This document shows positions 43,220 through 43,614 of a stretch of 64,000 nt of DNA, one piece after another. Position numbers and translations under genes: made by a program. The notes under the pieces were generated by a model that saw only the letters and a list, made by a program, of their open reading frames with translations, made no database searches and was not told the origin of the DNA. Within the stretch, counting starts at the first letter, position 1; the number at the start of each line of letters is the position of its first letter. The DNA lies in NCBI RefSeq assembly GCF_003334335.1, contig NZ_QOWQ01000026.1. One strand, given 5' to 3'. The stretch comes from Escherichia coli (GTDB taxonomy: Bacteria; Pseudomonadota; Gammaproteobacteria; Enterobacterales; Enterobacteriaceae).

Positions 43220-43324
43220 CAATATTTTCCTCCCGCGCTAAAGATCACATAATCTTAACAAGAATGTTAAAAAACGCTGGACTCAGACAGTAGAGTGTGT
43301 GTTATGGTTGACTATAAAGTCAGC

Positions 43325-43585
43325 GAAGGAAATGCTTCTGGCTTTTAACAGATAAAAAGAGACCGAACACGATTCCTGTATTCGGTCCAGGGAAATGGCT
43401 CTTGGGAGAGAGCCGTGCGCTAAAAGTTGGCATTAATGCAGGCTTAGTTGCCTTGCCCTTTAAGAATAGATGACGACGCCAGGTTTTCCAGTTTGCGTGC
43501 AAAATGGTCAATAAAAAGCGCGGTAGTCATCAGCTTAAATGTTAAAAACCGCCCGTTCTGGTGAAAGAACTGAGGCGGTTTTTTT
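43325..43585 (+). ncRNA. ryeA: RyeA (SraC) small RNA, antisense partner of SdsR; boundaries approximate
   Basis: Known K-12 arrangement in the pphA-yebY spacer; plus-strand terminator at ~43544-43586; 5' end not determinable from sequence. Confidence 0.4.
43354..43456 (-). ncRNA. sdsR: SdsR (RyeB) sigma-S-dependent small RNA
   Basis: Minus strand reads GCAAGGCAACTAAGCCTGCATTAATGCC...CCGAATACAGGAATCGTGTTCGGTCTCTTTTT, matching the SdsR sequence I recall, with terminal hairpin and T-run; upstream CTATTCTTAA is a sigma-S-type -10. Confidence 0.8.
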
Positions 43586-43586
43586 A
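43544..43586. terminator. bidirectional terminator downstream of yebY
   Basis: A5-CCGCCCGTTCT...AGAACTGAGGCGG-T7 imperfect hairpin. Confidence 0.6.
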
Positions 43587-43614
43587 TTGGAAATCAAAAG
43601 GCTATTTTAGGTAA

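Follow-up and report, generated by a model that had tools for sequence, protein, structure and literature searches.

The spacer between pphA and yebY in the 64-kb stretch of Escherichia coli DNA analyzed here (hereafter, the window) holds the E. coli sdsR/ryeA bidirectional small-RNA gene pair, a reading to which we assign a probability of roughly 0.96. Within this spacer, sdsR (also ryeB, b4433; 43354..43457, minus strand), identified by Rfam family RF00111 and by mapping the K-12 annotation over, specifies a σS-dependent, Hfq-type trans-acting sRNA. It lies wholly inside ryeA (also sraC, b4432; 43316..43587, plus strand), a σ70-transcribed antisense RNA placed by mapping the K-12 annotation over, with ends according to Choi 2019, which spans all of sdsR plus the sdsR promoter on the opposite strand. 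No novelty attaches to the pair itself, which is already known in full detail.

The locus matches K-12 in position and sequence

The entire window forms a single alignment block with K-12 MG1655 (1,879,827-1,943,750; 99.47% identity, one gap, zero insertions), and the pphA-yebY spacer (43220-43614) aligns to its K-12 counterpart free of gaps, with 392 of 395 positions identical. The curated K-12 record gives the gene order pphA, ryeA (b4432, 272 nt, plus strand), sdsR (b4433, 104 nt, minus strand), yebY. As in K-12, sdsR is placed between yebY upstream (43615..43956, minus strand; 113-aa open reading frame plus annotation), the last gene of the yobA-yebZ-yebY cluster, and pphA downstream (42563..43219, minus strand; phosphoprotein phosphatase 1, from a 219-aa open reading frame with listed end 43222 plus annotation). 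An earlier reading of this DNA made from the letters alone (the sequence-only reading) had put the pair in the pphA-yebY spacer, and both minus-strand flanks bear this out. In the RefSeq E. coli records inspected, PGAP features were absent from the spacer.

Three bases in the spacer depart from K-12, at 43521, 43525 and 43536 (RyeA positions 206, 210 and 221), none of them within the SdsR overlap, a promoter or a terminator; positions 43220-43520 match K-12 base for base. Because the spacer of strain SCU-152 is an exact match to the window, the three substitutions are ordinary population variants. Furthermore, the spacer (~392 bp) was found at 95% identity or more in 5,426 of 5,426 complete E. 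coli genomes, RyeA-only parts included, which, together with the stability of the SdsR fold (-34.8 kcal/mol, z = -4.4 relative to shuffled sequences), excludes chance. Window SdsR is thus the same gene as K-12 SdsR/RyeB (b4433, RF00111) in another E. coli strain, with the same sequence, σS promoter, terminator and pphA-yebY position and no detectable difference. RyeA is likewise the same 272-nt unit as K-12 RyeA/SraC (b4432, RF00101), sharing its promoter region, start, sdsR overlap and terminator and differing by the three 3′-domain substitutions, which lie outside every mapped functional element.

SdsR carries a σS promoter and a Rho-independent terminator

The whole window was scanned against Rfam at gathering thresholds of 38 bits (RF00111) and 37 bits (RF00101), yielding four matches, two of which (SdsR_RyeB and SraC_RyeA) fall inside the interval under study. 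The RF00111 match (43354-43453, minus strand) runs over the complete model (1-100 of 100 positions; 114.4 bits, E = 1.8e-21), and none of the 104 annotated nt of SdsR differs from K-12. In K-12, the SdsR start lies 1 nt inside the annotated 5′ end by primer extension and 5′ RACE, and RACE gave 3′ ends at +100 to +102 (Choi 2019, PMC6610125). In window coordinates, +1 corresponds to 43456 and the 3′ ends to 43357-43355, so that mature SdsR measures 100-102 nt, not 103, by the RACE ends. The sequence-only reading had assigned minus-strand positions 43354-43456 to SdsR and had named failure to align with SdsR as the result that would count against it; the segment aligned over the whole model, and the mapped start coincides exactly with 43456.

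The minimum-free-energy fold of SdsR shows the three helices of the family, the last of which is the terminator. This Rho-independent terminator (43354..43388, minus strand), supported by a terminator scan and by the fold, consists of GGACCGAAUAC, the loop AGGAAUC and GUGUUCGGUCU, followed by CUUUUU; its hairpin (43388-43360) has 11 pairs and a predicted energy of -15.8 kcal/mol, in agreement with the terminator hairpin and U-tail noted earlier.

The sdsR promoter (43460..43490, minus strand) was read from the sequence and from the features reported to give σS selectivity at this promoter, namely -13C, -14 G/T, -8C, an A/T discriminator and a 16-bp spacer (Frohlich 2012). A -35 hexamer TGGAAA (43490-43485) is followed by a 16-bp spacer and the -10 hexamer TATTCT (43468-43463), which includes -8C and is preceded by -14T and by -13C at 43469, and the discriminator TAA (43462-43460, -6 to -4) is of the A/T type; all five features are therefore present, and the promoter is near consensus for σS. 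The σS-type extended -10 previously quoted just upstream of SdsR, CTATTCTTAA at 43469-43460 on the minus strand, was recovered in exactly that sequence and place, with every published hallmark.

RyeA is delimited by its own promoter and a bidirectional terminator

RyeA is identical to its K-12 counterpart at 269 of 272 nt, the window having C at 43521, A at 43525 and T at 43536, and these 3′-domain substitutions shift its predicted minimum free energy from -93.0 (K-12) to -86.2 kcal/mol. The most downstream K-12 start is the annotated 5′ end, and K-12 3′ ends were mapped to +261 to +270 (Choi 2019, PMC6610125), which translates to a start at 43316 and 3′ ends at 43576-43585, inside the U-tract, in the window. 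The expectation that RyeA would be found on the plus strand across SdsR is confirmed by the mapped-over annotation at 43316-43587.

The ryeA promoter region (43278..43315, plus strand) is identical to K-12, where this promoter is transcribed by the σ70 holoenzyme only and a -10 mutation abolishes RyeA (Choi 2019, PMC6610125). The promoter is RyeA's own and lies beyond the SdsR 3′ end, the stated distance being 140 nt and the region coordinates those just given. We infer that its extended -10 is TGtTATGGT at 43300-43308, with TATGGT (43303-43308) as the probable hexamer; this candidate lies 7-8 nt upstream of 43316, where the start was mapped. At the other end, a bidirectional Rho-independent terminator (43544..43585, both strands) closes RyeA when read on the plus strand and, when read on the minus strand, comes after the yebY stop codon. 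The plus-strand reading comprises a stem at 43544-43583 and U7 at 43579-43585 (-20.0 kcal/mol, z = -4.5), and the minus-strand reading has a U5 tail (-19.8 kcal/mol, z = -4.9).

A consensus scan, which applied the σ70 consensus together with perfect-stem and loop-size rules, detected the SdsR terminator only, and neither the sdsR nor the ryeA promoter nor the RyeA/yebY terminator. Missing the promoters is the expected outcome for a σS promoter and an extended -10 promoter with weak -35 boxes, and the promoter assignment accordingly rests on K-12 identity and the literature.

The Rfam RyeA model reports SdsR

Alignment to the Rfam RyeA model had been proposed as a check on the antisense RNA. 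The model was indeed matched (RF00101, SraC_RyeA; 43350-43494, plus strand; positions 1-145 of 145; 175.1 bits against a threshold of 37, E = 2.9e-40), but the check proved non-discriminating, as such a match follows from SdsR. The 145-nt RF00101 model is essentially the reverse complement of SdsR and the sdsR promoter, and it lacks the RyeA promoter, the first 34 nt of RyeA and the last 93 nt of RyeA. Because the model covers only the SdsR antisense and the sdsR promoter, the match comes with SdsR and adds no separate evidence for RyeA. Consistently, RF00101 scored wherever RF00111 scored in 20 representative loci, including those of Shewanella and Paraglaciecola, where nothing besides the RF00101 score points to RyeA. 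What argues for RyeA in the window is a promoter region, start and terminator identical to those mapped experimentally in K-12. A SraC_RyeA Rfam match, in any genome, should hence not count as proof of RyeA.

Conservation across species traces SdsR

A species-representative genome collection was scanned with the conserved SdsR core, giving at least 120 loci that we treat as a sample. The matches listed include Escherichia, Salmonella, Citrobacter, Enterobacter, Klebsiella, Yersinia and Serratia, as well as Dickeya, Brenneria, Rahnella, Hafnia, Sodalis and others, four Shewanella and one Paraglaciecola. The window and, from the matches listed, the 109 other species with enough flanking sequence were assembled into a conservation set of 110 sequences. 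The fraction identical to the window base across this set was 0.85-0.99 for SdsR (the species were gathered by exact match to SdsR +35 to +60, so neither that segment nor helix 2 is informative about conservation), 0.79 for the sdsR promoter, 0.33 for the 5′ part of RyeA beyond SdsR, and 0.39-0.49 for the 3′ part of RyeA and its terminator.

Conservation confined to SdsR and its promoter indicates that it is the SdsR gene, not RyeA, that is being traced across species. The pattern fits SdsR as the primary product and RyeA as its cis antagonist, and conservation following SdsR rather than RyeA was reported earlier, with sraC found in only about half of the species examined and with shifting promoters (Frohlich 2012). 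Beyond the near relatives of E. coli, RyeA is little conserved. Upstream of SdsR and at the spacing expected, a C followed by TAnnnT was present in 108 of the 110 sequences among the matches listed, the exact hexamer TATTCT in 74 and a following TAA in 72. Imposing the Rfam SdsR structure on the 82 distinct sequences among these matches left 96.0% of cells paired, compared to at most 46.6% when the 3′ partners were slid. Both sides changed at eight pairs; the terminator helix accounts for five of these, so that 5 of its 11 pairs are compensatory. Helix 1 had 74% of its cells paired, mostly reflecting MAFFT misalignment of the variable 5′ end.

The Shewanella homologues scored 84-87 bits on RF00111 and keep a CTAYACT-type -10. 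That of S. nanhaiensis adjoins an rsmF homologue, and E. coli rsmF lies 1.4 kb from sdsR. In the literature searched for SdsR together with Shewanella, we found no description of a Shewanella SdsR.

Open reading frames across the locus are incidental

Two open frames with TTG starts cross the locus in the ORF list: one of 63 aa across sdsR (43320..43511, minus strand), which the sequence-only reading had pointed out and considered almost certainly non-coding, and one of 38 aa inside RyeA (43448..43564, plus strand). The 63-codon frame is open in the window as described, and an AUG at SdsR +24 lies in the same frame, so a real small protein, encoded by this frame or by a shorter AUG frame inside SdsR, would make the locus a dual-function RNA or a protein gene. 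We regard this as very improbable. The TTG at 43511 precedes both the sdsR -35 box and, by 55 nt, the SdsR start; it falls where the only known minus-strand transcript is terminator read-through from yebY, and reading the sequence revealed no Shine-Dalgarno at this start. No in-frame stop codon occurs within SdsR, and the RNA ends before any is reached.

Comparative data point the same way. Among the matches listed, 30 of 109 other species keep the 63-aa frame open over 60 codons or more, a length that the other two frames reach in 22 and 24; the frame across SdsR is most often bounded at +14 and +110 in these 109 species, so it is not maintained. For the 38-aa frame, 38 codons or more are open in 47 of the 109 species among the matches listed, versus 43 for a neighboring frame. 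Conservation tracks the RNA boundaries and helix pairing, not codon positions. Neither frame has an NCBIfam match at E values up to 1, and the 63-aa frame is annotated neither in the curated K-12 record nor by PGAP. We conclude that both are incidental, non-coding open frames, as had been supposed for the longer one. Recognizing the sRNA pair averts a spurious protein call here, in a spacer that lacks PGAP annotation and in which ORF callers see the 63-aa frame.

The SdsR terminator is a prophage attachment site, unoccupied in the window

A stretch of ~20 bp in the SdsR terminator (~43360-43379) corresponds to a prophage attachment core that is unoccupied in the window. In Salmonella, the ryeB terminator is an attachment site and insertion hot spot, as summarized in a review, PMC7380047 (Balbontin 2008). 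Across complete E. coli genomes, the spacer is split in two in ~237, and a junction-spanning query located a prophage junction at the SdsR terminator in 228 of 5,426. In E. coli O55:H7 DEC5A, a ~43-kb prophage sits between pphA and sdsR. Beside sdsR it carries a tyrosine integrase and excisionase, and it also has baseplate-type tail genes, a pinE invertase and a Rac-like early region (recET/kilR/ralR). At its sdsR end the 3′ half of the SdsR terminator is phage-derived (CGTATTCGGTCTTTTTTT versus native CGTGTTCGGTCTCTTTTT), and at its pphA end native sequence, with the ryeA promoter and the 5′ end of RyeA, continues as far as the equivalent of window position 43379. With a prophage in place, sdsR has a phage-derived terminator half, the ryeA promoter and the first ~64 nt of ryeA are cut off from the remainder of the gene, and pphA is separated from the sdsR promoter by 43 kb. 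In a separate type of disruption, IS1 interrupts sdsR itself in strain FDAARGOS_944.

Such occupancy raises the question of whether the window locus could be a mobile-element remnant or hybrid, formed at a former prophage attachment junction, rather than a native sRNA pair. The SdsR terminator is a documented integration site, a 43-kb prophage occupies it in the 228 genomes above, and a search of a phage collection with RyeA returned one 37-nt match, in a Salmonella prophage record; the attachment core itself is too short for BLAST at that database size, so this search says little about which phages use the site. The window terminator, however, is of the native type, with G at +89 and C at +98, and not the phage-supplied one, no second copy of the SdsR terminator occurs within the 64 kb, and collinearity with K-12 extends over the full window, interrupted by one gap and by no insertion. 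These observations leave the remnant reading with a negligible probability. A remnant attachment-site duplication was also considered and rejected on the single-copy terminator and K-12 collinearity, neither a second attachment core nor integrase remnants having been found in the window.

The separation of ryeA and pphA from their upstream parts in occupied genomes is seen in the sequence; in these lysogens, RyeA interference may be lost and pphA may be uncoupled from sdsR. If so, and at somewhat less than even odds in our estimate, lysogeny would constitute a natural switch de-repressing a σS sRNA regulon in ~4% of E. coli strains. A regulatory effect of a prophage at this site has been shown for Salmonella phage PhiW104, and no description of a lysogeny switch at sdsR in E. 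coli was found in the literature searched.

K-12 experiments and the behavior expected of the window strain

In K-12, ryeA is transcribed by σ70 polymerase during growth and sdsR by σS in stationary phase (Choi 2019, PMC6610125). Transcription of ryeA lowers the output of the sdsR promoter ~four-fold, whereas RyeA RNA supplied in trans does not, with polymerase collision the probable basis of the interference, and pphA transcription is also reduced ~four-fold by ryeA (Choi 2019). RyeA is abundant in exponential phase and delays the appearance of SdsR, SdsR and RyeA promote each other's degradation, and transcripts that start at the sdsR promoter and run past the SdsR terminator are the main source of pphA mRNA (Choi 2019). 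The ryeA-ryeB duplex was the most abundant stationary-phase RNase III double-stranded RNA cluster captured in vivo by p19. Acting in trans, SdsR targets tolC, yhcB and mutS in E. coli and ompD in Salmonella; its RpoS-dependent build-up in stationary phase, its binding to Hfq and its repression of tolC, yhcB and ompD are documented for K-12 and Salmonella.

The window and K-12 have the same SdsR, the same two promoters and the same two terminators, so the window strain would be expected to behave as K-12 does at this locus. In growing cells, σ70-driven transcription of ryeA would collide with and suppress that from the promoter of sdsR, and any SdsR made in this phase would pair along its full length with RyeA, the duplex then being cut by RNase III; the predicted duplex is complementary over the whole of SdsR, at -212.8 kcal/mol. 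On entry into stationary phase, σS would drive sdsR until SdsR outnumbers and destroys RyeA; SdsR would then act together with Hfq on mRNAs in trans, tolC and yhcB among them. Most pphA mRNA would come from read-through past the SdsR terminator, a co-transcription carried over from K-12.

A competing interpretation holds that only SdsR is functional and that RyeA, on the plus strand, reflects chance antisense transcription for which there has been no selection in the window strain. Its appeal lies in the low identity of RyeA-specific segments (0.33-0.49 versus 0.85-0.99 for SdsR among the matches listed), in the presence of sraC in only about half of species, with shifting promoters (Frohlich 2012), in an Rfam RyeA match that is not independent of SdsR, and in the few genes altered in RNA-seq by a ryeA promoter mutation in K-12 (Choi 2019). 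Set against this are the identity of the ryeA promoter, start site and terminator to K-12, and the K-12 behavior of RyeA itself, which combines exponential-phase abundance, SdsR delay, ~four-fold interference with sdsR and pphA, and rescue from SdsR toxicity. In addition, the SdsR-RyeA duplex tops the RNase III clusters seen in vivo, and the spacer as a whole, with its RyeA-only parts, reaches 95% identity or more in all complete E. coli genomes. We consider it distinctly unlikely that RyeA lacks a role, and a functional pair remains our reading.

Discussion

The sdsR/ryeA locus of the window has several close relatives in the literature, beginning with the type VIII (RNA-RNA) toxin-antitoxin systems, of which TADB 3.0 lists SdsR-RyeA as one of two validated loci. 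That classification derives from the toxicity of SdsR overexpression through repression of yhcB, and from its neutralization by RyeA, in K-12 (Choi 2018, as cited in later work). The window pair has the TADB 3.0 type VIII layout (opposite strands, distance below 0 bp), with overlapping opposite-strand RNAs as in SdsR-RyeA; toxicity is seen on overexpression, so a toxin-antitoxin label applied here would draw on K-12 overexpression phenotypes. In contrast to the other type VIII system, CreT-CreA (creTA), SdsR-RyeA has no CRISPR-Cas association. For the attachment site, the counterpart is the Salmonella ryeA/ryeB hot spot (Balbontin 2008, J Bacteriol 190:4075), where, according to the review, the same terminator serves as the core; in the window the site is empty. 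A further likeness is to other trans-acting sRNAs that have a cis-encoded RNA antagonist, such as the pair of PMC8687705, in which an antisense partner limits a fully complementary trans-acting sRNA via RNase III. The logic is the same, but the sequence is unrelated and the organism different, making this an analogy only.

The locus represents a compact case in which convergent-promoter interference, mutual RNA degradation, read-through into pphA and an attachment site within an sRNA terminator come together. If RyeA interference is indeed removed and pphA uncoupled where a prophage occupies that terminator, lysogeny would de-repress the σS sRNA regulon.

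SdsR homologues beyond Enterobacterales

A genome scan with the conserved SdsR core, which returned at least 120 loci, placed homologues of this sigma-S sRNA (sdsR, also ryeB; window 43354-43457, minus strand) outside Enterobacterales, in Shewanella and Paraglaciecola. Four Shewanella loci (L094 6865-6966, minus strand; L051 9565-9667, plus strand; L041; L062) scored 84-87 bits against the Rfam SdsR_RyeB model RF00111, and one Paraglaciecola locus (L115 11011-11110) scored 62.5 bits. The 5′ third of these RNAs is divergent, while conservation extends to the UAGCGCAC motif, to stem-loop 2 and to the terminator. 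A sigma-S-type -10 element (-13C/TAYACT) is retained upstream of the Shewanella copies and was not found at the Paraglaciecola locus. Furthermore, the S. nanhaiensis gene adjoins a homologue of rsmF, which likewise lies near sdsR in E. coli. No description of SdsR homologues outside Enterobacterales was found in the literature searched.

Prophage insertion, IS1A disruption and RyeA variants at the sdsR/ryeA locus

The SdsR terminator (window 43360-43379) is a prophage attachment site, empty in the window; sites associated with this observation at loci from other genomes are L003 19990-20030 and L125 22676-22705. In E. coli O55:H7 DEC5A, a ~43-kb prophage with an integrase occupies exactly this position, where a phage copy has been substituted for the 3′ half of the terminator, ryeA is severed after ~64 nt, and the insertion sets the sdsR promoter and pphA apart. 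Of 5,426 complete E. coli genomes, 228 share this prophage junction. As far as the summary of Balbontin 2008 in PMC7380047 describes it, the ryeB insertion hot spot of Salmonella is the counterpart of this E. coli site.

Separately, E. coli FDAARGOS_944 carries IS1A within the 5′ part of sdsR (L004 ~20225-21000, equivalent to window ~43447), a naturally occurring disruption of sdsR/ryeA. The 3′ domain of RyeA in the window (43316-43587, plus strand) differs from K-12 by three substitutions clustered within 16 nt (43521, 43525 and 43536, plus strand), which shift the predicted minimum-free-energy fold of RyeA as a whole from -93.0 to -86.2 kcal/mol; strain SCU-152 has an identical allele.

Other Rfam matches in the window

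The mntP leader contains a Mn2+ (yybP-ykoY) riboswitch (25712-25808, plus strand) that the default window scan passed over because its score, 41.6 bits, falls just short of the Rfam gathering score of 45. The “cspA thermoregulator” match over yobF-cspC (27402-27862, minus strand; 135.5 bits) is probably due to cold-shock-domain paralogy, not to an established thermosensor: the model takes in the cspA coding region, the strongest aligned columns fall in the coding part, and the 5′ leader is poorly aligned, with many non-canonical pairs and low posterior probabilities. The sRNA sroD gave a full-length match (8268-8353, minus strand; 115.2 bits) at the junction of the fadD 3′ end and rnd, and the K-12 RefSeq table has no entry for sroD in the corresponding stretch.

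RF00101 as evidence for RyeA

The extent of the Rfam SraC_RyeA model, RF00101, corresponds to window 43350-43494 and covers only the antisense of SdsR and the sdsR promoter; “RyeA” is therefore called in every SdsR-bearing genome. Such calls are independent of the presence of any RyeA promoter or terminator, and RF00101 is, in general, a cause of RyeA over-annotation.
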